From: an uncultured Fibrobacterota bacterium
GTDB lineage: Bacteria; Fibrobacterota; Chitinivibrionia; Chitinivibrionales; FEN-1185
NCBI GenBank assembly: GCA_963753345.1
Contig: CAVWBU010000015.1
Span: 64,001-128,000 of the forward strand
Direction of reading: 5' to 3'
DNA length: 64,000 bases
Shown here piece after piece: positions 2,733 through 58,480 of this stretch (positions are counted from its first letter, which is position 1; every line of letters starts with the position of its first letter). The notes under the pieces are model-generated. The model was not told where the DNA came from. It ran no database searches and saw only the letters and a program-made list of their open reading frames with translations. The position numbers and the translations under genes were made by a program.

Positions 2733-3207
2733 GGGCGTTCCCCTCCCCCTCGACTTCGCTCGGGGTTGGGCCGGTCTCCCTCCGGGCTCGGCTTCTCGCC
2801 TCGTTGCCGCCTGCCACTAAGGCCCTTCGGGCCGTGGTCGGGCGGCGATGCGCTCTTGCTCACCCTCCGGTCCACCTAACGCGCGGCAACGAAATCTATT
2901 CTGTCAATCATTTCTTCTCGCGCCAGTCTTCAACTCTCAACTTTCAACTATTTTTCTCGGTGCGGCCACAACAATGCATGGTCTTGCACAAAGGGAAAAG
3001 TGAAAGTCACGTGATACCCGAAGAGTGGTATTTGCGCCAGGGGCGACTGGAGGTCGTGCTGGAGCACGATGCTGCCCGGACCCGCCGCAACGCGGCATAG
3101 GGCCGTGGCAGCCCGAGGCCTTGGCCGAGACCGGAAGGAGAACCGGTGCCGAAGGCAGGCGCCCAATTCTTTAACTGGGTTTTTGAGACAGCCTGAACTT
3201 CCCCCGC
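2733..3207. repeat. Structured repeat mosaic: A(-) 2733-2887, linker 2891-2928, TCAAC tandem 2929-2950, B-end fragment, A(+) 3034-3164, D tail 3165-3207
   Basis: Shares gggcgttccc...cctaacgcgcgg and ...ccggaaggagaaccg...ggcgccc blocks with about 15 other loci in the window. Confidence 0.9.
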
Positions 3208-3215
3208 AAAATGAG

Positions 3216-4301
3216 CTACTTCTTGATTTTCGAAGTGGTTCCAACCATAAACTCAACCTTCATCTCCACCGTGTTCGAGAAGAACGAAAGCTTGTCGTCC
3301 GGGTCGCTTCTGTCGGTATTGATATCCTTGTTGAGCACGAACCCCTTTTTTTCCCTGAAAAACCCCAGGTACCGCCCCACATAGCACACAGAAACCTCCA
3401 TACCCGAGGTTTTCGACAATGCGCGCTGGGACGAGATGCCGATTCTCCATCCGCCGCCGTACCCCCAGGCGTAGAAGTTCCTAAGGTTCGCCCTGGCCGC
3501 CACAATCACCGAATCCGGGACGCCGGACCAGGCGACCGAAGTCTGTTTTGACAGATAGGAATACGGCAGGATGTATGCGCCCACGATGACGGACGTGCGG
3601 TCCACGCCTTCTATGCGGAACAACTTTTCGTCAAGGCTGTGCCGATACAGCATGCCCACGTTGAAGGTGTAGGAATCGAGCGATTGCCGGTAGTTGACTT
3701 TCCCGGACGCGGTGTCGCGCTGGAGCGTGGCCTGGAGCACCTTGCCGATGTAACAGAAAGAGCCTTCGAACGACACCGAACTCTTGCGGTAGACGAGCGG
3801 GGTCCAGGAGACCGATATCGGGAAAAGGATGTTGTAGGTGTTCACGGGTTCCGTCACCGACATGCCGAACGTGTCCGGATTCATGGGCAGAATCTTCTGC
3901 ACCGAATCCGGGAGGTTGCTCTGCCAGTCGTTGAAAATGTCGAACGATCCCAGCGCCCAGCCGATGCCGAATCCTATCGAAGGAATCTTGAGGAAAAGGC
4001 TGGCGGTGTCTTCAACCGCAACAGCGGTTTTCCTCTGGAGCTGAAGCGCTGTCCTTTTCAGAAGAGAGTCGTTTGACAATGACGCCGGGTTCTTCTGCGT
4101 TGAATCGGAAACCTTAACAGCGGCAGGAGCGGTGGATGTGTCCTTTGACTGAAGAGATGCGGGCCTTTTGAGAGTGTCCGCAGGCGAGGGATTGACTTTG
4201 AGGGAATCACGGTCTGCGCAATACGCCTGCGTTGTACAGACAAAAGCCGCCGCAATGACGATCATCAACAAGGATTGATGAAAAGATGGCGAGTGGTTCA
4301 T
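3216..4301 (-). CDS. Hypothetical exported/outer-membrane protein
   Basis: ATG overlaps the tsaB stop (ATGA); hydrophobic signal-like N-terminus, low-complexity linker, beta-strand-rich C-terminal part. Confidence 0.65.
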   Translation of the reverse strand: MNHSPSFHQSLLMIVIAAAFVCTTQAYCADRDSLKVNPSPADTLKRPASLQSKDTSTAPAAVKVSDSTQKNPASLSNDSLLKRTALQLQRKTAVAVEDTASLFLKIPSIGFGIGWALGSFDIFNDWQSNLPDSVQKILPMNPDTFGMSVTEPVNTYNILFPISVSWTPLVYRKSSVSFEGSFCYIGKVLQATLQRDTASGKVNYRQSLDSYTFNVGMLYRHSLDEKLFRIEGVDRTSVIVGAYILPYSYLSKQTSVAWSGVPDSVIVAARANLRNFYAWGYGGGWRIGISSQRALSKTSGMEVSVCYVGRYLGFFREKKGFVLNKDINTDRSDPDDKLSFFSNTVEMKVEFMVGTTSKIKK

Positions 4302-4999
4302 GGTGTCGGTACCGTCCGTTTCTTTTCTGCCTGCACCTCGCTGAGGTAGCGCGGCACGATGTTTTCCGCAGTCGTCCATCCGGCGCTGTCGCCGTTGCGG
4401 AGGCCGGCAATCATGGCGCAAGAGAGCCCGCGCTGGAGCGGGAATCGTTCAACGGGAAATACCGAAGTCCTGCCTTTCAGAAAATCGAATGCCGTGCTTC
4501 TTGCATAGCCGAGCGTGTCCGTGATCACAATGTCGTTATTGGAAACGGCCTGCTTGAATTCCTCGACCGTGGAGAGAACGTCGTCCGAGAGGCGCGCCAT
4601 TGCGCCGCCGCATTTTTCGAACCTGGCCGAGAACACCTGGCCGTTGCGCGCGTCCGACGCGCACACGATGAGGGCGTCACGCGCGTGCCAGGCTCCCGCC
4701 ATGCTTTCCAGAGAGGAAACCGGCAGCACGCGGCCGTCGCGGCCGAAAAGAAAACCCTTGAGAAAAGCAATGCCGATGCGCAGGCCGGTAAACGAACCGG
4801 GCCCCACCGCGATTGCGGCATGAGAAATTTCCGAGGGTTTCACCTTGTTCGCGGCCAGAAGATAATCCACTGCCTGGCTGATGTGCTCGGCGTGCGAATT
4901 GCGCAGGTATCTCGACACCGCCATCACGGGACAGCCGTCCGAGGCGAGGCCGATGCCGAGCTCGATGGACGATGTGTCGATGCCGAGCGTGTGATTCAT
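4298..4999 (-). CDS. tsaB: tRNA threonylcarbamoyladenosine biosynthesis protein TsaB
   Basis: LGIDTSS, HAE and GPGSFTGLRIG motifs. Confidence 0.93.
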   Translation of the reverse strand: MNHTLGIDTSSIELGIGLASDGCPVMAVSRYLRNSHAEHISQAVDYLLAANKVKPSEISHAAIAVGPGSFTGLRIGIAFLKGFLFGRDGRVLPVSSLESMAGAWHARDALIVCASDARNGQVFSARFEKCGGAMARLSDDVLSTVEEFKQAVSNNDIVITDTLGYARSTAFDFLKGRTSVFPVERFPLQRGLSCAMIAGLRNGDSAGWTTAENIVPRYLSEVQAEKKRTVPTP

Positions 5000-5007
5000 G
5001 CTGGGTG

Positions 5008-8486: not shown

Positions 8487-9110
8487 GGGCGTTCCCCCAT
8501 GTAGAGCTGTATCAAAATAATGCAAATTTGGTGGGGGAGGTGTCCCCCTGGCCCCAAGTCTCCTCGCCACGCTCCGCGCGTCTGCGGGGTCTTGGGGCAC
8601 ACCCCCTCGTGGGTAGCCCCCTATGGAGTTACTTTGCGAGAAAGAAGCCTAGGCTGCGGGGGCACCAAGAAACATTGTGGAATGATGATCGCAGAATGCG
8701 GAATAAGGCAGAAGAATGTCATTGCGAGCCCCTCGTCAGAGCTCGGGATAAACTCCGCGAAGCACCGTAACTAGGATCGCATACAATCCTAAAGGAGTAG
8801 CTGCGAAGCGAATCTACAGTTGATTCTTCAGAATATGAATTCCTTTTGACCTCTCCCCCAACCCCTCTCCGGACAGAGAGGAGAGTGACAGATGCGAAAG
8901 CCGTGCTGAGAGTTGGGCTGTGTCTTATGCGCCGCGCCAGGCCGGACTGCAAGGTGCGCCAGAGCGCATTGCCGGCCGACCCCGCCGCCAGGCATAGGGG
9001 CGGTTCGGCAACGAGGCCTTGGCCGAGCCTGGAAGGAGGGCCGCCGCCGTCTTCGGCGGGGCGCCCAAATCTTCTCTTGAGTTTTGAGACCGGCTGTGCT
9101 TCTCCCCCGA
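8487..9110. repeat. Structured repeat mosaic: A-end remnant 8487-8498, B 8530-8673, GTCATTGCGAG element 8717-8766, CCCCTCTCC element 8849-8885, A(+) 8931-9066, D tail 9067-9110
   Basis: Each block matches other copies in the window. Confidence 0.85.
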
Positions 9111-12112: not shown

Positions 12113-12149
12113 TTTGACAAAGCATAAATATCAAGAAGAAGAAAGACTT

Positions 12150-12476
12150 GGGCGTTCCCCAAAAGGAAAGGCGCATTCATATGTGCCTTTCCTTTTGGGT
12201 CGGTCTCCCTCCGGGCTCGGCTGTTCGCCTCGTTGCCGCCTGTCCCAACCGCCTTCGGCTAGGGATCAGGCGGCAATGCGCTCCAGCGCACCCTCCGGTC
12301 CACCTAACGCGCGGGCAGAGTGTGGGGTGCCGATGACCTTCCAATTCTGATTGACAAAGTATACTTTTTCAGGCGGAGCGCAGGCGTTGCGCCTCGCGCA
12401 GGTTGCGGCGCTTTTACAAACTTCTTAACTGCTCAACTTCTCAACCTCTCAACTTTCTTCTCGCGGTGCCCCCCCA
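12150..12476. repeat. Structured repeat mosaic: A(-) 12150-12316, C fragment ~12351-12411, CAAC tandem 12417-12456, GGTGCCCCC end
   Basis: gggcgttcccc...ggtccacctaacgcgcgg; gcgttgcgcctcgcgca is shared with the copy at 18752. Confidence 0.85.
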
Positions 12477-12538
12477 GATAGTCTTTTTTTGCTCTACTAG
12501 ATACTCTTTCTCTTTTTCGAAATCTCCCAACAAAATTC

Positions 12539-12580
12539 TTGACACGTTACCCCTATATGTGTATATTATACACGTCACCC
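12539..12580 (+). promoter_or_regulatory. Sigma70-type lexA promoter with overlapping palindrome (candidate LexA operator)
   Basis: TTGACA(12539)-N17-TATATT(12562); palindrome GTGTATA-T-TATACAC at 12559-12573; direct repeat ACACGTYACCC. Confidence 0.6.
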
Positions 12581-12615
12581 ATGTATACTATCCACCCACC
12601 CAATGGAACCACGAA

Positions 12616-13293
12616 ATGACATCTGCCATGAATATCAGCAGTGCAGGCGAGGGCGATAAAACCGTCACCGAAACTGCGCTCACAAAGAAGCAGAAAATGG
12701 TGCTCGACTTCATCGAGTCGCGGTACGTGGAGGCGGGGAGAGCGCCCACGTACGAAGAAATCGCGGCAAAGTTCAAATGGCGCTCGGCAAATTCCGTCAC
12801 CAACCATGTCGCTGCGCTGCGAGAAAAGGGCTACATCGCCGAGACAGGAGGCAAAAACCGTCACGTGACGCCCACGCGCATCGTGCGCATGCATCCGCGG
12901 CAGACCACGCGAATTCCTCTTATCGGCAGCATTGCGGCCGGCGCGCCCATCGAGGCGATAGAAAATGTTGAGACCTGGTTCGAATGGGACGCGCTCGGCG
13001 TCACCAACGAGCGGGGAGACAAGTTCGCGTTGCGCGTAAAGGGCAATTCCATGGTCAACCGCGGCATCCGCAACGGTGACATCGTGGTGGTGCAGCGCCA
13101 GTCGTTCGTCACGCGGCGCGACGTTGCCGCGGTGCGCGTGGGCAGCGAAGTCACGCTCAAGTATGTAAAGCAGGAGGCAAACAGCATAAGGCTCATACCC
13201 GACAACGACTTCGTTGCGCCATTGACCGTCGCGCCGACAGATGATTTCGAGGTTATGGGGAAGGTGGTAAGGCTATTTAGAGAGGATATATAA
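12616..13293 (+). CDS. lexA: SOS repressor LexA
   Basis: wHTH (LTKKQ...PTYEEIA...HVAALREKGYI), Ala-Gly cleavage site IAAG, catalytic Ser (GNSM) and Lys (TLK). Start could also be 12628. Confidence 0.93.
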   Translation: MTSAMNISSAGEGDKTVTETALTKKQKMVLDFIESRYVEAGRAPTYEEIAAKFKWRSANSVTNHVAALREKGYIAETGGKNRHVTPTRIVRMHPRQTTRIPLIGSIAAGAPIEAIENVETWFEWDALGVTNERGDKFALRVKGNSMVNRGIRNGDIVVVQRQSFVTRRDVAAVRVGSEVTLKYVKQEANSIRLIPDNDFVAPLTVAPTDDFEVMGKVVRLFREDI

Positions 13294-13312
13294 CTAAAAT
13301 AATAAATAAGAT

Positions 13313-13746
13313 GGGCGTTCCCTTGGCAGAGGCGCAAGATTTTTCGCCTCTGCCAAGGGCGGCCCTCGCTCCGGTCTCGGCCTTCGGCCTCGGGCGGCCT
13401 GCCACAAAGGCCCTGCGGGCCGTGGTCAGGCCGCACCGTGCTCCAGCGCGGCCTCCGTTCCGGCCTAACGCGGCGCAGAGGTTTGTTGGCCTGTCTGTTT
13501 TATTCTGCATCCGCCCTAACTTTTTGCAGGTTTTTAAACAGATTGGCGCGAGATGTGATATTGACAGAATAGACTTCAGTTGCCGCGCGTTAGGTGGACT
13601 GGAGGGTGAGCAAGAGCGAATTGCCGGCCGACCCCGGCCGAAGGCCCTCGGGGCGGTCCGGCAACGAGGCGAAAGCCGAGCCCGGAAGGAGACCGACCCC
13701 AGGTAGGAGGCGAACGGCCGTGCGCCTCTACTTGGGGAAACGTCCC
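13313..13746. repeat. Back-to-back A(-) 13313-13476, linker 13541-13577, A(+) 13582-13746
   Basis: Two divergent module A copies between lexA and dnaE2. Confidence 0.9.
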
Positions 13747-13781
13747 AACTCTTATAATAATAATAATGAAAAAACATAAAC

Positions 13782-16700
13782 ATGAACTTCATCCACCTCC
13801 ACACCCACTCCGAATACTCCTTCCACGCCGGGGTCCCTAAAGTAAAGGAACTCGTGGCCGCGGCAAGGGCGCACGGCATGGCCGCGCTGGCCCTCACCGA
13901 CACAAACCGCATGAGCGGGCTCATCGATTTTTACGTTTTGTGCCTTGAAAACGGCATAAAGCCCATCCTCGGGGTTGAACTCACCGATCCGAAACACGAC
14001 TGTGACAACATAGTGGTCGCTCGCAAAGAACAAAAACGGCTACGCAGACATGTGCGAGGTCATCACGCAGCGCCAGCTGCACCCGGAGACATTTGCATTC
14101 GGCAGGGTGTTTACAAAGGAATATCCTGACCTTTTTCTTCTTACGTCTTCGCCGCGCCTGCTGCGCGAGCTGGCCGCAACGCCGAATGCAAGGAACCTGT
14201 ACGCGGAGATGCTCCATCTCGATGCTGCCTCACGCGATGAGGCAAAGAAACTCTGCTTTATTGCGCAGCAGTTCGGCGTTCCGCTTGTTGCGGCCAACAA
14301 CGTCCATTTTCTTGCAAAGCAGGACTGGGAGACGCACCGGATACTTGCGCGCCATAGGCCATGTGTTCAACGCTGTCGCGGCTTAAACCGGAAGAGGTGA
14401 TGGCCGACGCCGCGTATTTCTGCACGGCTGAAGAAATGTGCGAACGGTTTCCCGGCCACGTCGAAGCGCTTGTCAATACCGCCAGGATCGCAGACCAGTG
14501 CAGGGCCGATCTGGAACTGGGCAACTGGATCTTCCCCAGAATTTCCGTGCCCGACGGTTTTACACCCGAGCAGTACCTGGAGAAGGTCGCGCGAGACGGG
14601 CTCGAACGCAGATACGGAGCCACACCTTCGTACCCAAAGGCAAAAGAGATTCAGGAAAAGGAGCTCGCGGTTATCAACAAACTCGGGTTTTCCTCATACT
14701 TCCTTATGGTAAAACAGGTGCGCGACTGGGCAAACAGCCGCTATAGCGGAGGGTTTAGAAAACCTGACGACTGCACTCTCATGCGCGGGTCTGCCGCAAA
14801 CAGCATCACGTTTTACAACATAGGTGCAAGCGATTTGGACCCGGTGCGTTACAACCTCTACTTCGAGCGGTTTCTCAACGAAGAACGGGCAAGCCCGCCC
14901 GATGCCGATCTCGATTTCGGCTGGGACGAGCGCGACGCGGCGTTCGACTACTTTGTCAATACGTGGGGCCGCGACCGCGTGGCCGTGATCTGCACGGTCA
15001 ACCACATGAAGCGCCGCGCCGCATTCCGCGAGGTCGCCAAAGTTTTCGGCTTTAGCGAGGAACAGGTGACCGGTCTTCTGGAGCACCGCGTTCTGCCCGA
15101 GCACGACCCGGACATCCAGCGCATACTCGCGTACGCAAACAGGGTGCGCGGCAAGCCGCGGTTCCTGGGCCAGCACCCGGGCGGCATCGTCGTGACCAAC
15201 GGCCCGGTATGGCGGCACGTGGCGTGCGAATATTCCGGCGGCGTCAAGAACAGGGTCGTCACGCAGATCGACATGCATTCCGGTATCGACGAGCTCGGGC
15301 TCATCAAGTTCGACATCCTCGGCAACGGCAGCCTTTCGGTGCTGCGCGACACGCTGTTCCAGATAGAGAAACAGGGCCACGCCGATCCCCGCGTATGGGA
15401 CGCGCAGTACGTGCAGAACGATCCTGCGGTGCTCGACATGATCGAAAATGGCCGCACGCGCGGCATTTTCTACATCGAGTCCCCTGCGCAGATGAAGCTC
15501 AACAGGCAGGCTCTGGCGCGCAGCTTCGAGGAGATCGGCATCACGTCGAGCGCGGTGCGGCCGGCAGGAGCACAGTACACAAAAGTGTTTGTGGAACGCC
15601 ACCGCAAAATGAAGCAGGGGATTGTCGATTGGAAATTTGTACACCCGTCGCTTGAGCCCATATTGTCCGAAACGCACGACTGTCTGGTATACCAGGAAGA
15701 TGTGGTGAAGATCTGCAGGGAGATCGCGGGGATGAACTTTAAGCGCGCCGACCGCGTGCGTAAGATGATGAACAGCCAGCACGACGGCGCGCCCGACGAT
15801 TACGAGGCGGTCGCCAGGGAATTCATGGAGGGCTGCATGGCGCATAAGGGATTGTCGCGGCCGCAGGCCGGCGAATTGTGGGAGCGGGTGAGCTCGTTCG
15901 TGGGGTTTTCCTTCTGTAAATCGCACAGCCTTAGCTATGCCATACTGTCGTTCAAGTGCGCCTTTCTCAAGGCGCATTATCCGGCGCAGTTCATGGCGTC
16001 GGTGATTTCCAACCTGCACGGATTTTACTCTACCGACACCTACCTCAACGAGGCACGGCGGCTGGGCATCACCATAAACCCCGTCCACATCAACGCGAGC
16101 AGGGTCGAAAGCCGCGGCAAGGGGCGGTTTCTTACCGTGGGACTCATGCACGTCAAGGGTATGAGCGTCCGCACCCTGCGGTCAATTATTGACGAACGCG
16201 CTGGAAACGGCCCGTTCCGCGGCCTTCTCGATTTCATCCGGCGCACCACCACGGGAAAAAGCGAGATCGAGAAGCTTGTGCGGGCCGGATGCTTCGACGG
16301 GTTCAACCTGAACCGGCCCGAGCTTCTCGCCCTGCTCGACGCAGCGTACGGCGGAGCGTGCGGCGCGCGCGATGCGCGCAGCGCAGAGAGTGACCTGTTC
16401 GGCGGCCTGCGGCCGTCCGATATGGATCTGCACCCCGGCCTTTCCGATTATTCCCTTACGCGCAAATGTCTTGACGAACTGGAACTTCTCGGGTTCATGC
16501 TGTCGGGCAACATCCTCGACATCCTGGATCTGCACCCCGAGGCGCGAAATGCGGTGCTGTGCGGCGATGTCGCTAAGCACGCAGGCCGCGGGGTGAAAGT
16601 GTTCGGGTGGCCCATCACGTCGCGCGTGCATCCGGTGCCGGGCAGGGGAGACATGAAGTTCATCACCGTGGAGGACAAGTCGGGCTGCGCCGACGTCGTG

Positions 16701-16928
16701 CTGTGGCCCGACGTTTACAAACAGTACGCCGATGTCACGCTGAGGCCGGGCCCGTTCGCCATTTCCGGTTATGTCAAGGAACAATTCGGCGTCCCGTCCG
16801 TGTTCGCGCAATCGATACGCGGGGTGGAGTGGTCGCCGTCCATCGTGGATTTCGAGCTGGCGAGCAAGAGATTGATGAAGTCTTACAATGAGGAATTTGT
16901 ATACAGAGATGCAATTAAGGCAGCATAG
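13782..16928 (+). CDS. dnaE2: Error-prone DNA polymerase III alpha (DnaE2-type), with three +1 frameshifts at ~14018, 14347 and 14360
   Basis: PHP domain HLHTHSEYS, RGSAANS signature, PDADLDF and GLIKFDILG catalytic motifs. Removing three single bases restores IVVLAKNKNGYADMCE and HRILRAIGMCSTL. Confidence 0.88.
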
Positions 16929-16945
16929 ATATAAATAAAATTTTA

Positions 16946-17251
16946 GTGGGGGAAGGCTCCCCCTCGCTTCGGCTCGGCGCTCGTATTTTCAAAGTTCATC
17001 TCATTCCGCGCCGGTCCTACGCTACCCCCTCGTGGGTAGCCCCCTAGAGAGTTGATTGGCAAGAATGAAACTTGGACTGCGGGGGCACCAAGAAAGAGAG
17101 TTGACAGTTGAAAGTTGGAGGCTGGCGCAAGAAATACCAATTAACTGAATAAATTACTCCTGCCGTGCGTTAGGCAGCCCGAGGCCGAAGGCCGAGACCG
17201 GAAGGACGGCCGACCCGACCCCGAGCTTAGTCGAGGGGAAGGGGAACGCCC
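16946..17251. repeat. Mosaic: B 16946-17098, GTTGA tandem 17100-17118, internally deleted A(+) 17162-17251
   Basis: gtgggggaagg...ccccctcgtgggtagcccc...gggggcacc, then gcgttaggcagcccgagg...gggaacgccc. Confidence 0.88.
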
Positions 17252-17283
17252 TGCTTTAAGCTTTAATTGCAGAAAAAGAACAA

Positions 17284-18863: not shown

Positions 18864-18889
18864 AGATATTTTCACTAATATTGATTTCT

Positions 18890-19825: not shown

Positions 19826-19861
19826 CGCATTGATCCGTACAACGTGTTGCGTTCTCGACTT

Positions 19862-21385: not shown

Positions 21386-21411
21386 ATATTCTTTTACATG
21401 AAAGGGAAATG

Positions 21412-22224: not shown

Positions 22225-22239
22225 GTGACGGTCCTTTCT

Positions 22240-25589: not shown

Positions 25590-25596
25590 ATAGGAT

Positions 25597-40451: not shown

Positions 40452-40467
40452 ACAATTAGTTTTCTTA

Positions 40468-40983: not shown

Positions 40984-41012
40984 AATTCTTATAACTAAAA
41001 GAAACCAAAATA

Positions 41013-42485: not shown

Positions 42486-42488
42486 TTT

Positions 42489-42835: not shown

Positions 42836-42876
42836 AGTCTTTCTTACTATACCAAAAAGGAAAAAGAGAGAACATC

Positions 42877-44590
42877 ATGACAGAAGAAAAAGTAAATCAG
42901 ATTGCACCAGAATCCGAAAAACCCGCAAACTTCATCCGCGAGATCATCGCGCAGGACCTCGCATCGGGCAAGGTGAAGAAAGTGGTAACGAGGTTCCCGC
43001 CCGAGCCCAACGGCTATCTGCACATCGGACACGCCAAGGCCATAAGCATAGATTTCGGAATGGCCATGGAATTCGGCGGCGAATGCCACCTACGCTACGA
43101 CGACACCAACCCGAGCAAGGAAGACCAGGAATATGTGGACGCCATCCAGCAGGACGTACGGTGGCTCGGCTACGACTGGGGAAAGCACCTCTATTATGCG
43201 TCCGATTACTTCCAGCAGATGTACGAGTGGGCGGTGCACATGATAAAGGCCGGCACGGCATACGTGTGCGACCTTTCTGCCGACCAGATGCGCGAGTACC
43301 GGGGCACGCTTACGCAGCCGGGAAAAGAAAGCCCGTATCGCAACCGCACCGTAGTGGAGAACCTCGATCTGTTCGAGCGCATGCGCAAAGGGGAGTTTCC
43401 GGACGGCTCCCGTACCCTCCGGGCAAAAATAGACATGGCATCGCCGAACCTTAACATGCGCGACCCCGCCATGTACCGCATCGTCAAGAAACCCCATCAT
43501 CGCCAGGGCGATGCATGGTGCATCTATCCAATGTACGACTGGGCCCAGGGCAACGAGGACGCCATAGAAGGGCGTCACGCATTCCCTCTGTTCGCTCGAA
43601 TTCGAGAACCACCGGCCGCTGTACGACTGGTTCTTAAAACATGCGCCGGTGCCGTGCATTCCCCAGCAGCGGGAGTTCGCGCGTCTCAATCTCACCTATA
43701 CCGTCATGAGCAAGCGCAAACTGCTCCAGCTGGTGGAGGAGAAATATGTAAGCGGCTGGGACGATCCGCGCATGCCGACGATATGCGGCATGCGGCGGCG
43801 CGGGTACGCGCCCGAGGCGATCCGCGCGTTCTGCGAAAAAATCGGCGTTGCCAAACGCGACAGCATGGTCGAGGTTGCCCTGCTAGAGCATTGCGTGCGC
43901 GAAGATCTCAACAGGCGTACGCCGCGTGCCATGGCCGTGCTGCATCCGCTCAAGGTCGTCATCGACAATTATGCGGACGGTAAAACCGAAGAGCTTGACG
44001 CGGTGAACAATCCCGAGGACCCTTCGATGGGGAGCAGGAAGGTTCCGTTCTCGAAAGTGCTTTACATCGAGAAAGAAGATTTCATGCTCGATCCGCCCAA
44101 GAAATTCTTCCGTCTTTCACCCGGCAGGGAAGTGCGGCTTCGGTATGCGTATTTCATCACCTGCACGTCGGTGGAAAAGGATGCCGCGGGTACGGTGACC
44201 GCCGTGCACTGCACTTACGACCCCGCCACGCGGGGCGGTGCCGCGCCCGACGGCCGCTCGCCAAAGTCAACCATGCACTGGGTTTCGGCGCAGCATTCGG
44301 TCTCCGCGGCAATCCGGCTCTACGACTATCTCCTGACAAAGGAAAACCCGGCGGACGTCGCCGAGGGCATGGATTTCAAATCGCTCATCAATCCGCAGTC
44401 GCTCGTCGCGGTGAACGACGCCCGTCTGGAGCCGGCGCTCGCGCATGCAATGCCGGGCGACAGATTCCAGTTCGAGCGGGTGGGATATTTCTGCGCGGAT
44501 ACGGTCGACTCAAAACCGGGGAAACCGGTGTTCAATAGGACGGTGTCGCTGAAGGATACGTGGGCGAAGATACAGAAGAAGCAGAAGTGA
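42877..44590 (+). CDS. glnS: Glutamine--tRNA ligase, with a +1 frameshift at GGG 43570-43572 (likely read error)
   Basis: [22 protein letters not shown] and FQFERVGYF motifs. Deleting one G restores [24 protein letters not shown]. Confidence 0.93.
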
Positions 44591-44683: not shown

Positions 44684-44989
44684 TTACCAGCGTCCGCCGC
44701 CGCCTCCTCCTCCGAACCCGCCTTTGCCGCGTCCGCCTTCCGGCTTTGGACGGGCCTCATTGACGGTGAGCGCGCGGCCTTCGAGCTCTTTGCCGTTCAT
44801 GGCTGCGATGGCTGCCTGTGCTTCCTGGTCCGAACCCATTTCCACGAAGCCGAACCCCTTTGACCTACCAGAGTCCCGGTCGGTGATGACCTTGGCCGAG
44901 GCTACTGTCCCGAACCCTGCGAACATTTCCTGCAGCGAGCTGTCGCTAACGCTGTAGGGCAGGTTGCCTACATACAACTTGTTACCCAT
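44684..44989 (-). CDS. RRM RNA-binding protein with Gly-rich tail
   Basis: KLYVGNL (RNP2) and KGFGFVEM (RNP1). Confidence 0.95.
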   Translation of the reverse strand: MGNKLYVGNLPYSVSDSSLQEMFAGFGTVASAKVITDRDSGRSKGFGFVEMGSDQEAQAAIAAMNGKELEGRALTVNEARPKPEGGRGKGGFGGGGGGGRW

Positions 44990-50425: not shown

Positions 50426-50521
50426 GGTGAAAAGTTGAGGAGTTGAGAAGTTAAAACGGGAATGCTGCAGGCTCGTATCGGCTGTCCGGAAGAAATTTCC
50501 TCTAGCTTCTTCTTCCGAAAT

Positions 50522-50712
50522 AACCTCACCCCCGGCCCCTCTCCGCCCGGAGAGGGGAGAAGCAAAAGAACAAAAAAAGGTATTTGGAAAGGCGCGGTCT
50601 AACCGAAATCAGGTTCCCCAACGATGAAATCTTGAATGATGCCAAAGGTGCTTCAAAAAATAGGTGCCCGAAAATTCCCCTCTCCGGGCGGAGAGGGGCC
50701 GGGGGTGAGGTT
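50522..50712. repeat. REPIN-like pair of perfect 37-bp inverted repeats
   Basis: aacctcacccccggcccctctccgcccggagagggga at 50522-50558 and its exact reverse complement at 50676-50712; each arm is itself a hairpin. Confidence 0.9.
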
Positions 50713-50736
50713 CCAACGGATGTACAAGGTGGTTGC

Positions 50737-50799: not shown

Positions 50800-53700
50800 T
50801 TACATCTGCGTCTCCGCCATCTTCTTCAGCATCGCATACTTCGCATTCACGTTCTTCTGTGCCATTTCCATAAACTTCCCGCTCGCTTCCGGGTTCGTGC
50901 GCTGCAGGATCTTGTATCTGTTCTCGCGCATGGTGTAATCAACAAGCGGCATGGTCGGGTCTTTGCTGTCAAGCTGCAGCGGGTTTTTGCCCGCAGCGGC
51001 GAGCGCGGGATTGTACCGGTACAGCGGCCAGTGGCCGGACGCCACCGCATTCTTCTGCTCCTGGTACCCGTCAAGCATGTCTATGCCCTGGTTGATGCAC
51101 TGGGCATAGCAGAGAACGAGAGCGGGACCTTCGTAGGTCTCGGCCTCCATGAACGCCTTCACCGCCTGCTGCGGGTTTGCGCCGAGCGCGACCTTGGCAA
51201 TAAAAATGTAGCCGTAGCTCATGGCGATAAGGCCCATGTCTTTCTTGAATGTTGGTTTTCCGCCTGCGGCGAATTTCGCGACTGCACCCATAGGAGTGGC
51301 TTTTGATGCCTGGCCGCCGGTGTTGGAATACACCTCGGTGTCGAGCACCATGAGTTTCACGTTGCGGTTTGATGCGAGCACGTGGTCGAGCCCGCCGTAC
51401 CCGATGTCGTAGGCCCAACCGTCACCGCCGAACGCCCACACGGATTTTTTAGCAAGGAAATCGATGACCGACAGGAGCGCCTTTGCGTCGTCGGACTTGT
51501 CTTTTGCAAGGCCGGCCTTTGCGCGGTCGATGCGGGTGCGCTGCGTCTCGATTTTTTCCGCATCGGACTGGTCTGCGCCAAGGATTTCGCCGAGAAGTGT
51601 TTTGATTTCCGGGCCGCACGATCCGGTCTCAATCATTTTCTTCGCGTTCATGGCTGCGATATCGTTGAACTTGTCAACAGCCAGCCTCATGCCGAACGCG
51701 ACTTCGGCCGGGTCTTCGAACAGGGAATTGTTCCATGCGGGCCCGCGGCCGTCCGCCCGTTTGGCGTAGGGAGTTGTGGGAAGGTTGCCGCCGTAAATGG
51801 ACGAGCAGCCAGTTGCGTTGGCAATGATCGCCCGGTCGCCGAACAGTTGCGATACCAGCTTGATATACGGGGTTTCGCCGCAGCCTGCGCATGCGCTTGA
51901 GAATTCGAACAGCGGGCGCACGAACTGGCTGCCCTTCATGGTGTCTGTTTTAAAAAGCTTTGCGTCGGTCTCGGGAATTTTGAGGAAGAACTCCCAGTTT
52001 TTTGCCTCTGCCTCCCGCAGCGGCGTCTGCGGCTTCATGATGATCGCGTCGCCCTTGCCGGTCATGGGGCAATTCTGCACGCACACCCCGCAGCCGGTGC
52101 AGTCTTCAACGGCCACCTGCATCGTGTACTTGAGGCCCGCGTATTCCTTGCCTTTTGCATCTACCGACTTGAACGTCGCGGGCGCGCCTGCAAGGTGTTT
52201 CGGGTCGTATGCTTTGGGCCGTATGGTTGCATGCGGGCACAGCAGGGAGCACCGGTGGCACTGTATGCACACCGCCGGGTTCCACACCGGCACGTTGAGC
52301 GCGATATTGCGTTTTTCGTACTGTGTGGTGGCGGTGGGCCAGATGCCGTCGGCTGGCATCTGCGAGACCTTGACGGTGTGTCCCATCTGCTTGAGCAGCG
52401 TGCCGATCACCTCCTTGACAAACGCAGGCGCGTTGTCGGGCACGGGCTTGATTTCTTCGACAGGGTTGGTAACCTTGTCCGGGTATTCCACCTTGTTGAT
52501 TTCGCTCTGCGCCTTGTCGACCGCGGCGTTGTTCATCTGAAGGACCTTCTCGCCCTTCTTGCCGTACGATTTTTCAATGGCATATTTGATCGACTTGATG
52601 GCCTTGATGTCGTCCATCACCTTTGAAATGCGGAAGAACGCGGTCTGCATGATCACATTGATGCGGCCGCCGAGCCCGAGGCCCTGCGCTATTCCCACCG
52701 CGTCAATCACGAAAAACTGCGCCTTCTTGTCGATGATCTGCTGCTGCACCCGGCCTGGCAGTTTGGACCAGATGGTTGTTGCGTCATATTCGGAGGTGAG
52801 CAGGAACACGCCGCCTTCTTCGAGAAAGCCCAGCATGTCGTATTTCTCAAGGAACGAGTAATTGTGGCAGGCGATAAAATTGGCTTTGGTGATGAGATAG
52901 GGACGGCGTATGGGCTTGGGCCCGAAACGGAGGTGCGACACCGTGACCGCGCCGGCCTTCTTGGAGTCGTACACGAAATAGCCCTGCGCAAAGTTCGGGG
53001 TCTGCTCGCCGATGATCTTGATGGAATTCTTGTTCGCGCCGACCGTGCCGTCGGAACCGAGACCGAAGAACAGGGCGCGGTGCGTCTCCTTGTCTTCAAC
53101 GCTGAAGTTGCCGTCAAAAGCTATTGATGCGCCCATGACGTCGTCGTCCGGGCCCACCATGAAATGGTTTTTTGGTTTGTCTTTTGCGAGTTCGTCGAAA
53201 ATGCCCTTGACCATTGCGGGCGTGAACTCGGCTGAACCGAGACCGTAGCGTCCGCCGATGATTTTAGGATACTGTTTGAGCGCGGACGTTCCCTCGCTCA
53301 TTGCCTCGCCGAGAGCGGTGCGCACGTCTTCGTACAGAGGCTCGCCGAGCGAACCGGGTTCTTTTGTCCTGTCGAGGACCGCGATTTTCTGGACCGTGCC
53401 GGGAAGCGCATTGACAAATGCTTTCGCGTCGAACGGCCGGAACAGGTGGACTTTGAGCACGCCGGTCTTTGCGCCCTTGGCGTTGAGGTATTCCACCGTG
53501 TCCTGCACGGTTTCGCCGCCCGAGCCCATGATGATGATCACACGGTCCGCGTCCTTCGCGCCTTCATAGTCGAACAGGCGGTACTGCCGGCCCGTGAGCT
53601 TTGCGAATTTGTCCATGGCCGCCTGGACAATGCCGGGGCATGCCGCATAGAACTTGTTGACGGTTTCGCGTCCAGTAAAATAGACGTCCGGGTTCTGCGA

Positions 53701-54357
53701 CGTGCCGCGGAGCGTGGGATGGTCGGGCGACATGCCGCGGCTGCGGAATGCGCGGATGTCCTCCTCGTCGATCATGGCGCGCATGTCGTCGAACGTGAGT
53801 TCTTCGATCTTCTGCACTTCATGCGAGGTGCGGAAACCGTCGTAAAAATGAAGGAACGGGATGCGCGATTTGAGCGTGGAGGACTGGGCGATAAGTGCGA
53901 AGTCCATTGCTTCCTGCACCGAATTGGAGCATATGAGCGCAAACCCGGTCTGCCGGGTGGCCATCACGTCGCTGTGGTCGCCGAAAATATTCAATGCCTG
54001 GCAGGCGAGTGCGCGCGCGGTAACGTGGAAGGCGGTGGGCATGAGCTCGCCGGCGATCTTGAACATGGTCGGGATCATCAGGAGAAGTCCCTGCGACGCG
54101 GTGAAGGTCGTGGTGAGCGTGCCGGTGCACAGGGAACCATGCACCGCGCCGGCCGCGCCCGCTTCGGACTGGAGCTGGGCAACGGTGGGAATTGTCCCCC
54201 AGATGTTCTTTTCGCCCTTTGCCGATTTTTCATCCGCTATTTCGCCCAAACCCGACGAGGGAGTAATGGGGTAGATGGCGATCACTTCGTTTACCGCATG
54301 CGCCACATGCGCGCAGGCGGTGTTGCCTTCGTGGGGGACCATTTTCCGTTGTGCCAT
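50800..54357 (-). CDS. nifJ: Pyruvate:ferredoxin (flavodoxin) oxidoreductase
   Basis: YPITPSS, GLGSDGTVG, two CxxCxxCxxxCP motifs, ACAGCGETPY and GGDGWAYDIG. Confidence 0.97.
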   Translation of the reverse strand: MAQRKMVPHEGNTACAHVAHAVNEVIAIYPITPSSGLGEIADEKSAKGEKNIWGTIPTVAQLQSEAGAAGAVHGSLCTGTLTTTFTASQGLLLMIPTMFKIAGELMPTAFHVTARALACQALNIFGDHSDVMATRQTGFALICSNSVQEAMDFALIAQSSTLKSRIPFLHFYDGFRTSHEVQKIEELTFDDMRAMIDEEDIRAFRSRGMSPDHPTLRGTSQNPDVYFTGRETVNKFYAACPGIVQAAMDKFAKLTGRQYRLFDYEGAKDADRVIIIMGSGGETVQDTVEYLNAKGAKTGVLKVHLFRPFDAKAFVNALPGTVQKIAVLDRTKEPGSLGEPLYEDVRTALGEAMSEGTSALKQYPKIIGGRYGLGSAEFTPAMVKGIFDELAKDKPKNHFMVGPDDDVMGASIAFDGNFSVEDKETHRALFFGLGSDGTVGANKNSIKIIGEQTPNFAQGYFVYDSKKAGAVTVSHLRFGPKPIRRPYLITKANFIACHNYSFLEKYDMLGFLEEGGVFLLTSEYDATTIWSKLPGRVQQQIIDKKAQFFVIDAVGIAQGLGLGGRINVIMQTAFFRISKVMDDIKAIKSIKYAIEKSYGKKGEKVLQMNNAAVDKAQSEINKVEYPDKVTNPVEEIKPVPDNAPAFVKEVIGTLLKQMGHTVKVSQMPADGIWPTATTQYEKRNIALNVPVWNPAVCIQCHRCSLLCPHATIRPKAYDPKHLAGAPATFKSVDAKGKEYAGLKYTMQVAVEDCTGCGVCVQNCPMTGKGDAIIMKPQTPLREAEAKNWEFFLKIPETDAKLFKTDTMKGSQFVRPLFEFSSACAGCGETPYIKLVSQLFGDRAIIANATGCSSIYGGNLPTTPYAKRADGRGPAWNNSLFEDPAEVAFGMRLAVDKFNDIAAMNAKKMIETGSCGPEIKTLLGEILGADQSDAEKIETQRTRIDRAKAGLAKDKSDDAKALLSVIDFLAKKSVWAFGGDGWAYDIGYGGLDHVLASNRNVKLMVLDTEVYSNTGGQASKATPMGAVAKFAAGGKPTFKKDMGLIAMSYGYIFIAKVALGANPQQAVKAFMEAETYEGPALVLCYAQCINQGIDMLDGYQEQKNAVASGHWPLYRYNPALAAAGKNPLQLDSKDPTMPLVDYTMRENRYKILQRTNPEASGKFMEMAQKNVNAKYAMLKKMAETQM

Positions 54358-54476
54358 GGGAAGCTCCTGCTATGGTTATTAATTTATGTATGATGTGAAT
54401 TGTTGGCGGAAGTATTTTTGAAAACGTGATAAAATACATGAAAGCGGGATAAAGAGCCTAAGAGGAGAGTATTTAA

Positions 54477-54916
54477 GTGGGGGGAGGTACAGCCTGTCTC
54501 AAAACTCAAGAGAAGATCTGGGCGCCCCGCCGAAGACGGCGTCGGTTCTCCTTCCGGTCTCGGCTAAGGCCTCGGGTTGCCGACGGCCCTAGTCGCCCAC
54601 AGGCGAGGGTCGGGCGGCATCGCGCTCTGGCGCGACCTCCAGTCGCCCCTGGCGCGTGCGCAGACGACCGGAGCTTGATTGAATATTTGCAACTGTTTTT
54701 AGGTAGGATAGTTGACAAAAGCGAATGCACCTTAATTCGCTATCGCCGCGAAGCGGCATACCGCAGAGGTTGCGTTGCGAAGGGGCGACGCCGCGCGAGC
54801 GCAAGTCGAGCGCACCAGACGCGCCCCTTTGCTGGAGGGGGTGTGCCCCGAGACCCCGCAGACCGCAGGGCGAGGAGGCTTGGGGCCAGGGGGAAACGCG
54901 AAGCGGTGCCCCCACC
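54477..54916. repeat. Mosaic: D tail 54477-54519, A(-) 54520-54661, C(+) 54711-54916
   Basis: Same architecture as 18451-18863. Confidence 0.9.
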
Positions 54917-54948
54917 GGAACCTGTATAATTAATGACAAAATACAGAA

Positions 54949-55884
54949 TTATGAAAGGTCTTGCTTAGTCGGCAAAGAATCTATCATCCCGCCTTTGATC
55001 CCCTTGAAAAGGGCAACATTGTTCGCGAATTGCGCGGCGGTAAAGGGGTCGAACCCGCGGGCAATGCTGTGTAGGAACCCGCCGTTGAACGCGCTGCCGA
55101 TGAGGGTGAGGTCGGCAACGGGTCCTTTACCGGCGGGAATAGGGAACTCCTCGATTTTTCCCTGATAGCCCACGAGGCAGCCCTTGTCGCCGTTCTTGAC
55201 GGCCACGATTGAAACCCCGCGGTCCCACAGAAACCCGATGACGTCGAGCGGGCGCTCGTAGCCGAACAGGGCCTTGGATTCGTCGGGCGCGGAGGGAAGC
55301 ATCACGTCGACAAGGGGGAGCACGCTCCAGAGACATTCCTTGGCGTCGTCGAGCGACCAGAGACGGAGCCGGAGGTTGGGATCGTACGCAACCATGATGT
55401 CGTTGATATGCGCGAGATGGAACGCCTTGAACACGGTGTGGCGGGCGGCCTTTGATACCGACTGGAGCTCGCTTGACGCATACACGATCTTGCTGTTTTC
55501 GATGAGGTCGTCGTAGACAAGCGCCGGGGTGATGGACTGGGCCGCGCTCCCGGGACGGTGGAACAGGTACTCCCGCTCGTCGGTGTTGCGCGGGTTGGTG
55601 AGGTAGACGCCGTTGTATCCCTGGCAGGTGATGGTGTGGTCGATGTTGATGCCCTGACCCACGAGCGCCTCGCGCGCGAACGAATGGAACGGGTCGCACG
55701 CGATCGCCGACACCAGCGACACGGCCGACCCGAGGCGCGCCGCAGCGACCGCGGTGATGATGTCGGCCCCGCCGATTGATTTACGGTAACGGTCCGCGAG
55801 GGCGATGTCGCCGTCGCACCGCATCTCGACGAACGTTTCGCCGATCACGAGAAGGTCGAAATCGCGGACATAGGCAGGTTTCAT
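54949..55884 (-). CDS. PfkB-family sugar kinase (KdgK-like)
   Basis: IGGA...AARLG, YDPNLR and VKNGDKG motifs; C-terminal DLTLIGSAFNGGFL is a degenerate DTTGAGD. Confidence 0.8.
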   Translation of the reverse strand: MKPAYVRDFDLLVIGETFVEMRCDGDIALADRYRKSIGGADIITAVAAARLGSAVSLVSAIACDPFHSFAREALVGQGINIDHTITCQGYNGVYLTNPRNTDEREYLFHRPGSAAQSITPALVYDDLIENSKIVYASSELQSVSKAARHTVFKAFHLAHINDIMVAYDPNLRLRLWSLDDAKECLWSVLPLVDVMLPSAPDESKALFGYERPLDVIGFLWDRGVSIVAVKNGDKGCLVGYQGKIEEFPIPAGKGPVADLTLIGSAFNGGFLHSIARGFDPFTAAQFANNVALFKGIKGGMIDSLPTKQDLS

Positions 55885-55994
55885 GGAAAAATTCCAACGT
55901 TCAAATTCAAGACTTCGGTGCTGGAATTGGAGGAGCTTGGACCGTTGCTGTTAAAGTTCCCACTCTCAACTTTCAACTCTTAACCTTCAACTTC

Positions 55995-56339
55995 CTAAAA
56001 CGGCGATTCCATCAGGCACCGCAACGGATCGCGCTTGTCGGAGGAGACTTCCGAGAACTCCACGCCGATCATGTGCTGTTCGCCGATCCGGCATGTCCAT
56101 GCCACTTTCCCTTTGCACCTGGTGGTGCCGAACTGGTTGTTGACTTCTATCAAGAGCTCGGCGCCCTGCGGAATTTCGAGGTGAGGTGTTTCGCCGCCCA
56201 CGGTGAAACGCGCGCCGATTTCCGAGAAGTCAAGCATCGACGCCGGATACCTGGTTCCGTGCACCACGACGGAGGAGGGACACGACACCCTGAGGGCTTT
56301 TCGTCCGGCCCTGCGGCGTTCGGCGTCCTTTGTTTTCAC
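55995..56339 (-). CDS. PilZ-domain protein
   Basis: ERRRAGR, DFSEIG and IGVEF motifs. Confidence 0.78.
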   Translation of the reverse strand: MKTKDAERRRAGRKALRVSCPSSVVVHGTRYPASMLDFSEIGARFTVGGETPHLEIPQGAELLIEVNNQFGTTRCKGKVAWTCRIGEQHMIGVEFSEVSSDKRDPLRCLMESPF

Positions 56340-57338: not shown

Positions 57339-57600
57339 GGGCGACAGTTAAAATAACATTTAATGGAAACGCCGAACTACTCTTTTTTGAGAATGGAGAT
57401 CGCAAAGGCGGTGTCTGTGCGCTCCGGAATTCAATGCGGTGATGCGTCGCGGGTGGAAATCGTCCCGTCGGGCTTGTGCCGGTTCACCGCCGCGGGCTTT
57501 GACATGGATAAGAGCAACAACATATATTTGGACATTCCGGAATTGAAGAACCCCGCAACCAGCTTCGAGAAGTCGCTCGCTGTGGGATTCGCCCTGAGCA

Positions 57601-58284
57601 ATGCCGCACCCCGAAAAACACCTTGTTATCGCCATCGACGGCCCGGCCGGTTCAGGCAAGAGCTCGACCGCGAAGCTCGTGGCGCAGCGTCTGGGCATAC
57701 TCCATCTTGACACGGGCGCGATGTACAGGGCCGTGACCCTCAAGTGTCTGAGACGCGGCATACCGCACGGCGACCACGGCGCGATTGCCGAGCTTGTGAG
57801 TAACACCGGGATCTCATTCACCGGCGCGCCTGCCGCGATGCGCGTGCTGATGGACGGCGAGGACGTGACAAGCGCGATCCGCAGCGACGAGGTTACCAAG
57901 AACGTTTCGGACTACTGCACCGTGCCGGCGGTGAGGAAGGTGCTGGTGGACCTTCAGCGGAAGATCGGCAAAGGCGGGTCTCTTGTTTGTGAAGGACGCG
58001 ACATCGGCACCGTCGTTTTTCCGAAGGCGCGCCTGAAGTTCTTTATGGTCGCGTCCGACGAGGAGCGGGCCAGAAGACGTCAAAAAGACTTCGCGGCGAT
58101 GGGAATAAAGAAAAGTCTTGATGAGCTTGTTGACGAAATCCGCGCGCGCGACCACAAGGATTCGAGCAGGGAGAACAGCCCACTGTGCAAGGCGGATGAT
58201 GCAGAAGAAATAGACACGACGAATATGACGCTAGACCAACAGGTGAAATACATAGTTGACAAGGCAAGAAAATTGATTGAGTAA
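57601..58284 (+). CDS. cmk: Cytidylate kinase (possible N-terminal extension from 57363)
   Basis: IAIDGPAGSGKS, LDTGAMYRA and EGRDIGTVVFP motifs. Confidence 0.95.
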   Translation: MPHPEKHLVIAIDGPAGSGKSSTAKLVAQRLGILHLDTGAMYRAVTLKCLRRGIPHGDHGAIAELVSNTGISFTGAPAAMRVLMDGEDVTSAIRSDEVTKNVSDYCTVPAVRKVLVDLQRKIGKGGSLVCEGRDIGTVVFPKARLKFFMVASDEERARRRQKDFAAMGIKKSLDELVDEIRARDHKDSSRENSPLCKADDAEEIDTTNMTLDQQVKYIVDKARKLIE

Positions 58285-58301
58285 AAACAGCAGTAGTTAT
58301 T

Positions 58302-58480
58302 TTGCGCAAAAAATGTTTCTTGACTGAATAGAGTTCCGTTTGCGCGCGTTAGGCGGACTGGAGTGGTGCGCTGGAGCGCAGTACCGCCTGATCCCTAGCC
58401 GAAGGCGGTAGGGACAGAGCGGTACCGAGGCCTTGGCCGAGCCCGGAAGGAGGCCGACCCCGCGAAGCGGGGGAACGCCC
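58302..58480 (+). repeat. Linker fragment plus A(+) 58342-58480, inside the cmk-rpsA spacer
   Basis: ttgactgaatagagttcc...gcgcgcgttaggcgg...ccccgcgaagcgggggaacgccc. Confidence 0.9.

Follow-up and report, generated by a model that had tools for sequence, protein, structure and literature searches.

Introduction

Interspersed repeats such as the repetitive extragenic palindromes (REPs) and bacterial interspersed mosaic elements (BIMEs) of Escherichia coli, the pneumococcal BOX elements and the Correia elements of Neisseria are usually short hairpins, and whether they are parasites or tools of the host is debated. BIMEs are extragenic mosaics of high copy number, in which REP (or PU) units stand in alternating orientation and are joined by few conserved linker motifs. 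BOX is composed of boxA, tandemly repeated boxB and boxC. Both BOX and Correia are intergenic repeats that are predicted to fold, short units with terminal inverted repeats resembling miniature inverted-repeat transposable elements (MITEs), and they are sometimes co-transcribed with their neighbours, affecting expression or RNA processing. We know of no multi-junction fold, covarying tertiary contact or obligate divergent pairing of two families described for either of them. Here, we analysed a 64-kb stretch of an uncultured Fibrobacterota genome (hereafter the window), in which most long intergenic gaps are filled by two families of large folded repeats, A and B/C, always placed back to back.

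In layout, and in layout only, these repeats are similar to the BIMEs of E. coli: the units alternate, are joined by a conserved linker or GTTGA tandem, and lie between genes. The units themselves are different, being 136-207-nt multi-helix folds with a covarying tertiary pair instead of palindromes of about 35 bp. They belong to two unrelated-looking families that are mixed in 35 of 40 pairs, have an 8-nt tandem at the centre, and show no sequence similarity to BIMEs. A first-pass annotation of this DNA, whose element names A, B, C and D we keep, had described a BIME/REPIN-like system. The higher-order mosaic, the strict back-to-back rule and the BIME-like layout stand, whereas the likeness to REPINs fails in size, tags and partner identity. 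REPs are imperfect palindromes, which PMC3733652 describes as 20-40 bp long and as carrying a GTAG or CGTC tag. The consensus sequences of A and B end in GCGYY...CGCCCA and CTCTYC...CCCCCA, respectively, with neither tag. The partners of the two A-A pairs in the window are only 48% and 54% identical and therefore cannot form the one long hairpin that two near-identical inverted REPs make in a REPIN. There are no near-identical copies among those compared, and the 72 window ORFs scanned include no gene for RAYT, the Y1 transposase that mobilises REPINs. The modular intergenic build is reminiscent of BOX. A covarying fold, many copies per genome, a narrow range and an unassigned role are features in common with the structured RNA motifs of Weinberg et al. 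(2010, 2017), as far as the passages of these papers on Fibrobacteres allow the comparison; neither A nor B/C matches a family in Rfam 15.

A and B/C elements occupy most long spacers of the window

The window encodes housekeeping functions, as assigned by Pfam on long open reading frames (ORFs), including ddl, purC, lexA, dnaE2, an imuB-like gene, dinB, bioB, carAB, pyrG, purF, ychF, gltX, glnS, PFOR, cmk, rpsA and others. Its G+C content is 47-61% per 2-kb window, mostly 55-61%. A repeat search returned at least 60 direct-repeat families, of which the larger ones, examined as D1 to D19, sit in spacers, while D20 is the internal S1-domain repeat of rpsA. Elements were catalogued with a covariance model of A (R1), a covariance model of B (R2) and, for C and truncated pieces, nhmmer. 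There are 28 elements in 64 kb: 17 copies of A (16 found by R1 and one 5'-truncated copy at 31082-31180 found by nhmmer), eight of B and three of C. A degenerate pattern of the A core matched the window 13 times, while 0.00 matches were expected from 100 shuffles. By hand count on the window gene map, about 15 of roughly 19 spacers of at least 250 nt are occupied by elements, and a search of the other long spacers for further shared repeat families gave small pieces only. Several spurious ORFs of the window overlap elements. The elements are as follows, with the gene end towards which the 3' end points:

2730-2884, minus strand: full A; R1 95.2 bits, nhmmer model positions 4-190; toward the stop of gene 1658-2683; on its 5' side a linker (2885-2928) and a GTTGA tandem (2930-2949, Tandem Repeats Finder), also minus strand
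2941-2988: truncated B-like 5' part preceding the next A, a fragment match to the B hidden Markov model
3032-3167, plus strand: A with short last hairpin and D-type tail; R1 144.2 bits; toward the stop of minus-strand gene 3216-4421
8518-8680, minus strand: B with a C-like middle part; R2 52.9 bits; toward the purC start
8932-9069, plus strand: A; R1 76.5 bits; D tail at 9070-9110, matching the tails at 54479-54516 and 18452-18492
12147-12312, minus strand: A; R1 78.2 bits; toward the stop of a GH2 gene
13310-13473, minus strand: A; R1 133 bits; toward the lexA stop
13540-13722, plus strand: linker (13540-13584) and A; nhmmer positions 3-187, R1 53.5 bits; toward the dnaE2 start
16933-17103, minus strand: B; R2 144.7 bits; toward the dnaE2 stop
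17120-17254, plus strand: linker and degenerate A with the middle helices deleted; R1 60.2 bits, nhmmer match in two pieces (positions 4-61 and 129-186); toward the imuB-like start
18451-18628, minus strand: A (18493-18628) with D tail (18451-18492); R1 128.8 bits; toward the imuB-like stop
18672-18872, plus strand: C; nhmmer E 4.3e-52; toward the start of a DUF72 gene
21122-21388, plus strand: solo unit of GTTGA tandem (21122-21157), linker (21202-21247) and A (21248-21388); Tandem Repeats Finder, nhmmer and R1; toward the stop of the HD-domain gene 21412-22224 (minus strand)
25594-25750, minus strand: A; R1 161.9 bits; toward the bioB stop
25817-26010, plus strand: C; nhmmer E 7.8e-58
30837-31013, minus strand: B; R2 164.6 bits; toward the carB stop; then a GTTGA tandem (31010-31044)
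31082-31180, plus strand: 5'-truncated A; nhmmer positions 85-188; toward the pyrG start
32852-32989, minus strand: B without stem II; R2 107.2 bits; toward the pyrG stop; GTTGA tandem at 32985-33025
33063-33260, plus strand: linker (33063-33107) and A; nhmmer and R1; toward the purF start
34749-34921, minus strand: B; R2 165.5 bits; toward the purF stop; GTTGA tandem at 34928-34949
34981-35186, plus strand: linker and A; nhmmer and R1; toward the stop of ychF (minus strand)
37911-38083, plus strand: solo B, 92% complementary to 34764-34915; R2 159.4 bits; toward the start of a gene at about 38147
40455-40631, minus strand: B; R2 162.3 bits; toward the stop of a TPR gene; weak GTTGA tandem at 40628-40671
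40770-40986, plus strand: linker and A with an extra hairpin after P6; nhmmer and R1; toward the gltX start
42477-42613, minus strand: B without stem II; R2 105.8 bits; toward the gltX stop
42682-42838, plus strand: A without linker; R1 151.4 bits; toward the glnS start; ortholog in locus L031
54477-54657, minus strand: A (54517-54657) with D tail; R1 112 bits; toward the PFOR start; ortholog in locus L003
54725-54925, plus strand: C; nhmmer E 4.5e-58; toward the stop of pfkB (minus strand); ortholog in locus L003
58298-58483, plus strand: linker and A, solo; nhmmer and R1; between cmk and rpsA

In addition, a remnant of the 3' end of A, GGGGAACGCCCAA, stands alone at 61740-61752 (plus strand) between a GDSL gene and an ABC transporter gene; the TTG start given to the GDSL gene by the ORF finder overlaps with it.

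The degenerate A-core pattern was also run over one genome per species and matched at least 56 loci. Among the 56 listed and fetched, 50 are from three Fibrobacterota metagenome-assembled genomes (MAGs), namely 29 from a Chitinivibrionales MAG, 12 from an uncultured Fibrobacterota bin and nine from a fen Fibrobacteres bin. The other six belong to unrelated records; as they gave no match to the covariance model, we regard them as chance hits. The model had no match either in L018 of the Chitinivibrionales MAG, a short pattern match near a contig end. The family is present in at least three other Fibrobacterota/Chitinivibrionales genomes. The closest relative among the matches listed is the Chitinivibrionales MAG, one locus of which is 88.3% identical to window positions 53030-56101 at the nucleotide level over about 3 kb.

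A is predicted to fold into eight helices with a covarying long-range contact

The A element is about 150 nt long (R1 matches span 136-171 nt), and its fold was derived by hand, with helices placed on MAFFT alignments, and then by covariance model, giving 36 modelled pairs in six helix groups. In the predicted fold, the closing helix P1 (GCGYY with RRCGC) is joined by seven more: P2, a hairpin; P3, P4 and P5, which make up a long arm and include a conserved bulged A; the hairpin P6, flanked by CGAGGC...GCCGAG with possible tandem G-A pairs; P7, a small hairpin with the loop ARGGAGNN; and the variable hairpin P8. In 60 of 71 A copies, P1 is directly followed by CCA. Conservation is 90% or more in both CGAGGC...GCCGAG and GGARGGAG.

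Across 71 copies from four genomes, 93.2% of the pair cells are standard pairs and 25 of the 36 pairs change on both sides; fitting the alignments to the models gives structure an advantage, yet the observed margin is wide. None of 500 shuffles reached any of these measures, and sliding the partners by 1-3 columns lowered pairing to about 35% (30-44%). P1 itself covaries between UA (46-47 copies) and CG (17-20 copies).

Outside the helices, a mutual-information scan picked out one pair, columns 18:231 (CG 33, UA 27, UG 3, other 3), which joins the Y of GGACYGG to the R of the P7 loop (GGARGGAG). Its neighbour 17:232 is invariant (CG 63). Both states of 18:231 occur within several A subtypes, indicating that the covariation is more than subfamily linkage. 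We read 18:231 and 17:232 as a putative pseudoknot-like long-range contact; two further pairs proposed for it are weak. A helix between the purine run of the linker and the pyrimidine tail after CCA was dropped, as its registers by eye were inconsistent between copies.

B and C form one second family and are strand-specific

The B/C elements are about 140-200 nt long, with full B matches spanning about 136-207 nt. In the predicted fold, stem I is nested, with CUCUYC pairing to GGAGGG, GGGUG to YACCC and C5 to G5. Stem II varies between copies and may be missing, and stem III is the terminal G5/C5 hairpin. Among 40 B matches, partial and weak ones included, pairing holds in 93.0% of the pair cells, and both sides vary in 13 of the 27 pairs, on an alignment likewise fitted to the model. 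Fixed U-G or G-U pairs occur at several positions, in 30, 22, 11 and 8 sequences (UG in the 30 and the 22, GU in the 11). On the other strand these would be A-C mismatches, so that B is strand-specific. In A, the hairpin loops are mostly GAA or GCA and the complementary triplets are rare. The U-G pairs of B and the loop triplets of A identify the folded strand as the one whose 3' end runs to the neighbouring gene, which is the sense strand that the first-pass annotation had assumed.

Two of its modules have to be merged with others. B and C had been listed as independent, but the alignment showed that reverse-complemented B has its 3' half in common with C (...ACCCAGGAGGGGGT..GCGGAGGACC...GGAGCGAGGGGGA..CCCCCAC), and B is thus a C-like element on the other strand. 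D, listed as a module of its own, belongs to an A subtype whose last hairpin is short, and forms its 3' tail (tails at 3168-3205, 9070-9110, 18451-18492 and 54477-54516). A conserved linker before A does exist as proposed, but by nhmmer it precedes only eight of the 17 window copies. By a strict regular expression it was found at 5 of 16 A in the window, 18 of 28 in the closest MAG, and 1 of 12 in each of the other two.

The whole window gave no Rfam 15 match at the gathering score, and at E values up to 10 the best match in 32800-35300 (E 0.48) was inside purF, outside the elements. ARAGORN found no tRNA or tmRNA in the window despite the CCA after P1. A group II intron remnant and an SRP-like or RNase P-like RNA were considered as identities and had no Rfam support. 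Searching the literature for Chitinivibrionales or Fibrobacterota repeats and structured RNAs yielded nothing, although supplements of motif papers could list a related motif; the passages of PMC5737381 and PMC2864571 that mention Fibrobacteres hold nothing on these repeats, and term searches of two 2026 preprints returned nothing on repeats or structured RNAs of the lineage. Interspersed extragenic mosaics are themselves already known, and A and B/C are two apparently undescribed structured families.

Paired elements diverge and point their 3' ends towards gene boundaries

In the window, every one of the 12 adjacent pairs diverges, with 5' ends inward and 3' ends toward the genes, as the first-pass annotation had claimed. 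When the tabulation was extended to the 56 fetched loci, 40 of 43 adjacent pairs were divergent and none convergent. Outside the window the loci were picked through A, so that pairs without A could be sampled inside the window only, where there are none. The 40 divergent pairs comprise 28 A-B, seven A-C and five A-A, and 35 of them are of mixed families. The remaining three are short partial B stem-I hairpins located 16 nt after an A, at three A copies of a single MAG. In this MAG (loci L001, L006, L013, L019 and L042), several A copies carry another conserved upstream block of about 100 nt and no linker, indicating that companion modules differ between genomes.

The proposed architectures were likewise recovered. 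B-GTTGA tandem-linker-A is complete at 32852-33260, 34749-35186 and 40455-40986 and partial at 8518-9069, 16933-17254, 30837-31180 and 42477-42838; A(-)...C(+) occurs at 18493-18872, 25594-26010 and 54517-54925, and A(-)...A(+) at 2730-3167 and 13310-13722. Many pair centres hold the 8-nt GTTGA tandem, detected by Tandem Repeats Finder, and the conserved linker with a TTGAC box. In several genomes the tandem abuts the 5' end of B, reading in the B sense as TCAAC repeats followed by CTCTYC.

To class the gene end that each element faces, we used a codon-usage gene caller trained on Pfam-confirmed genes. Four elements had no call and seven had flanks that were too short; two "none" calls in the window are, by Pfam, the glnS start and the gltX stop. 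The counts for window and loci were:

A: 35 toward a start, 30 toward a stop, 65 classed
B: 7 toward a start, 21 toward a stop, 28 classed
C: 3 toward a start, 4 toward a stop, 7 classed

The distance from element to gene end is 2 to 243 nt. Since A, B and C each face both starts and stops, the placement rule is "3' end towards a gene boundary" and not a position upstream of genes. The solo A at 21248-21388 belongs with the stop-facing copies because the plus-strand ORF 21409-22638 beyond it, with a codon score of about 1, is probably spurious. The true coding strand there is the minus strand, on which an HD_5-domain protein is encoded at 21412-22224 and a response regulator at 22240-22698.

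Orthologous spacers keep the elements in place and exchange their parts

Two orthologous spacers were compared with one relative, the Chitinivibrionales MAG. In the gltX-glnS spacer, the relative has kept the terminal hairpin after the gltX stop while the rest of B is missing; it has a GTTGA tandem and a linker, both of which are absent from this spacer in the window. The A core at this position is 116/119 identical, with a different P8. The PFOR-pfkB spacer has D-A(-)...C(+) in both genomes, and the first (5') 116 nt of C are 110/116 identical. P3-P5 of A and the middle of C have been replaced wholesale by variants known from other copies, and A as a whole is 104/139 identical. In the four flanking genes, identity at third codon positions is 66-82%. 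As the cores exceed this identity, they are held above the near-neutral level while patches are exchanged. The pattern fits purifying selection together with gene conversion, or gene conversion alone.

The first-pass annotation had proposed that modules insert at, or recombine with, shared hotspots, and that empty sites might be found in orthologous spacers. The recombination half of this proposal is borne out, as helices, the B body or the GTTGA-linker block have been swapped or are missing; no empty site was found in the two spacers, the relative having elements in both. Otherwise different copies also have short stretches in common that are 92-95% identical.

In a tree of 68 A copies, the genome label changed 28 times, against 32.9 in shuffles, indicating that copies are not clustered by genome. 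End branches have a median of 0.097. In the four window copies listed, identity to the closest other copy is 79-92%, and no near-identical copies were found among the 68. The family must have spread through the genome once, and the two spacers compared with one relative give no sign of present movement.

Discussion

The reading that we favour, while placing it a little below an even chance, is that A and B/C are old, selected structured-RNA modules, read outward from a common centre and reshuffled by gene conversion. The covariation, the long-range contact, the strand-specific loops and U-G pairs, and conservation above the synonymous level point to selection on folded RNA, and not to plain selfish DNA. 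Copies are inherited in place, kept folded and reshuffled by segmental gene conversion between copies, which produces the mosaic. What we infer beyond this is outward transcription and a promoter in the centre. The centre would then be a divergent start region from which the elements are transcribed outward; start-facing copies would form part of the 5' leader of the next gene, and stop-facing copies would yield short convergent RNAs with the terminal hairpin just past the neighbouring stop codon. The elements would thereby act as transcript-boundary modules, in end protection, termination or insulation.

A more far-reaching version, which we consider unlikely, is that nearly every long Chitinivibrionales spacer may hold a divergent pair of small-RNA genes fired from the GTTGA centre. 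Each RNA may be pseudoknotted, about 150-200 nt long, with a GC helix and a CCA-like tail, and such a genome-wide RNA boundary system may set transcript ends or recruit a common ribonucleoprotein at each gene boundary. In a bolder variant still, the CCA-tailed fold may have been the template of the RNA-mediated copying that spread the family.

Several observations speak against selected RNA modules. The alignments behind the pair counts of A and B favour structure by construction, being fitted to the models, and the excess of G-U (52) over A-C (26) in A is due to one conserved position that makes up half of the G-U count. The 30 of 65 A and 21 of 28 B copies that face a stop carry their folded strand antisense to the neighbouring mRNA, an awkward placement for a cis-acting RNA. 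Most copies in two genomes have no linker, and at glnS the window has lost it. Some copies are degenerate (17120-17254, 31082-31180, and the missing B body in the gltX-glnS spacer of the relative), so that constraint does not extend to all of them. Similarity between copies could also be maintained by gene conversion alone, with no function at the individual locus. Between 30800 and 43000, sigma-70 promoter-like sites (5 against 6.1 expected from shuffles) and intrinsic-terminator-like sites (13 against 16.1) showed no excess. The linker and the upstream box of C were also inspected by eye as sigma-70, extended -10, sigma-54 or Bacteroidetes-type promoters, and discarded for lack of a consistent spacing.

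The elements could instead be non-autonomous mobile DNA of the MITE or REPIN kind, each pair being one inverted-end element copied by an enzyme encoded elsewhere in the genome, with a fold that would serve recognition of a single-stranded DNA or RNA intermediate. The very high density, the strictly intergenic position, the truncated and chimeric copies, and the different module content of orthologous spacers are all in accordance with this, and elements that abut starts and stops without a gene-direction rule are what a unit of about 400-550 bp dropped into a short spacer would leave. The outer ends of pairs also read as short inverted termini, TGGGSG...CSCCCA, which are equally the common 3' end of each folded element. 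We nevertheless regard mobile DNA as possible rather than probable, given the absence of near-identical copies and of clustering by genome, the same positions in the relative of about 88% identity (a 3-kb stretch), and cores conserved above third codon positions. Direct repeats are not enriched outside the ends: the longest word shared by the 12 nt outside both ends of 28 pairs averages 3.36 nt, against 3.22 +/- 0.18 after shuffling, in a test that is weak because the exact ends are uncertain and conserved tails continue about 8-10 nt further. As the first-pass annotation had stated, no mobilising enzyme is apparent in the window, since no Pfam transposase, integrase or reverse-transcriptase domain and no RAYT gene was found among the 72 ORFs scanned, several of which have no Pfam match; nor did the complete B-tandem-linker-A unit match plasmid and phage collections. 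Known hairpin-recognising transposases, of the REP/RAYT and IS200/IS605 kinds, need far less than a fold of eight helices in which a tertiary pair covaries and unpaired purines are conserved.

A role in DNA, as promoter-terminator or protein-binding cassettes with a nucleoid protein or regulator on the GTTGA tandem and the fold as a palindrome by-product, would explain the fixed 8-nt period of the tandem, its central position in many pairs and its contact with the B 5' end, as well as the conserved linker with its TTGAC box. It would also have a parallel in the BIMEs of E. coli, whose units bind IHF, gyrase or Pol I. Recruitment of IHF by REPs is likewise mentioned in PMC3479197. Duplex sites, however, would not be expected to show strand-asymmetric features such as U-G pairs, GNA loops and tandem G-A motifs, or a non-nested pair that covaries, and many pairs lack tandem and linker while keeping their folds, which makes this account improbable. 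We give very little credence to A as a cis-regulatory leader of the downstream gene, either riboswitch-like or as a ribosome standby site exposing GGAGG. A does lie 11-75 nt upstream of the pyrG, purF, gltX, glnS, rpsA, dnaE2 and imuB-like starts, several of these genes have no Shine-Dalgarno sequence, and A contains two conserved GGAGG-like motifs. The downstream genes have no common pathway, though, and no Rfam family matches. The riboswitch-like form was set aside because half of the A copies face stops, in antisense, and the standby site because the GGARGGAG loop covaries with GGACYGG and is apparently engaged, hence not free. That the repeats are chance or an assembly artefact has next to no probability: the frameshifts in glnS and dnaE2 indicate that the window sequence is not error-free, but 13 pattern matches stand against none expected, and the recurrence of the same families and pairing rule in three independently assembled genomes already refutes it.

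If the RNA-boundary reading is true, these elements are a new class of genome-wide RNA boundary element and not selfish repeats. Large covarying folds that are kept in place and yet shuffled by module make the question of function versus selfishness directly testable, in a little-studied phylum, and two structured-RNA families that are not in Rfam would join the catalogue. The elements are also likely to break short-read assemblies and to mislead gene callers.

Neighbouring sequence features

Further small modules accompany the elements. An insert of about 130 nt at 40640-40770 is 85% identical to positions 563-694 of L026, where the neighbouring genes are different, and looks like an extra small mosaic module. 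A hairpin motif GTCATTGCGAGC...GCGAAGCAATC occurs in some pair centres (40686-40715, 8722-8770, L026 and L045). Downstream of a PilZ gene and after a GTTGA-like tandem (50428-50452), 50506-50558 and 50676-50728 form an inverted pair with perfectly complementary 37-nt cores (50522-50558 and 50676-50712), each of which holds a CCCCTCTCC...GGAGAGGGG hairpin. Hairpins like these are also present in L030, in L033 and, at about 8850-8890, upstream of an A; they represent a different small repeat family.

An RRM-type RNA-binding protein of 101 aa is encoded at 44684-44989 on the minus strand (Pfam RRM_1, E 3.4e-23); it would be a candidate to bind structured RNAs of such abundance. The two frameshifted genes are glnS (42877-44590), split into two overlapping frames at about 43570 by one extra G in a G run in comparison with the intact L031 ortholog (an error of sequencing or else a genuine frameshift), and dnaE2, split likewise into 13782-14129 and 14361-16928. 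The latter belongs to an SOS-type mutagenesis cluster at 12403-21082 (lexA, split dnaE2, imuB-like Y-family gene, dinB), every spacer of which is filled by repeat pairs. Upstream of the LexA domains, a 22-nt unit is present twice at 12560-12602 with a TGTATAC..TATACA-like palindrome, which may be a LexA box. Finally, the solo B at 37911-38083 comes after a stretch (36271-37669) with two ORFs without Pfam match and a third-position G+C of 0.43-0.45, within a region of G+C 0.47 (36001-38000); this stretch is possibly foreign DNA.

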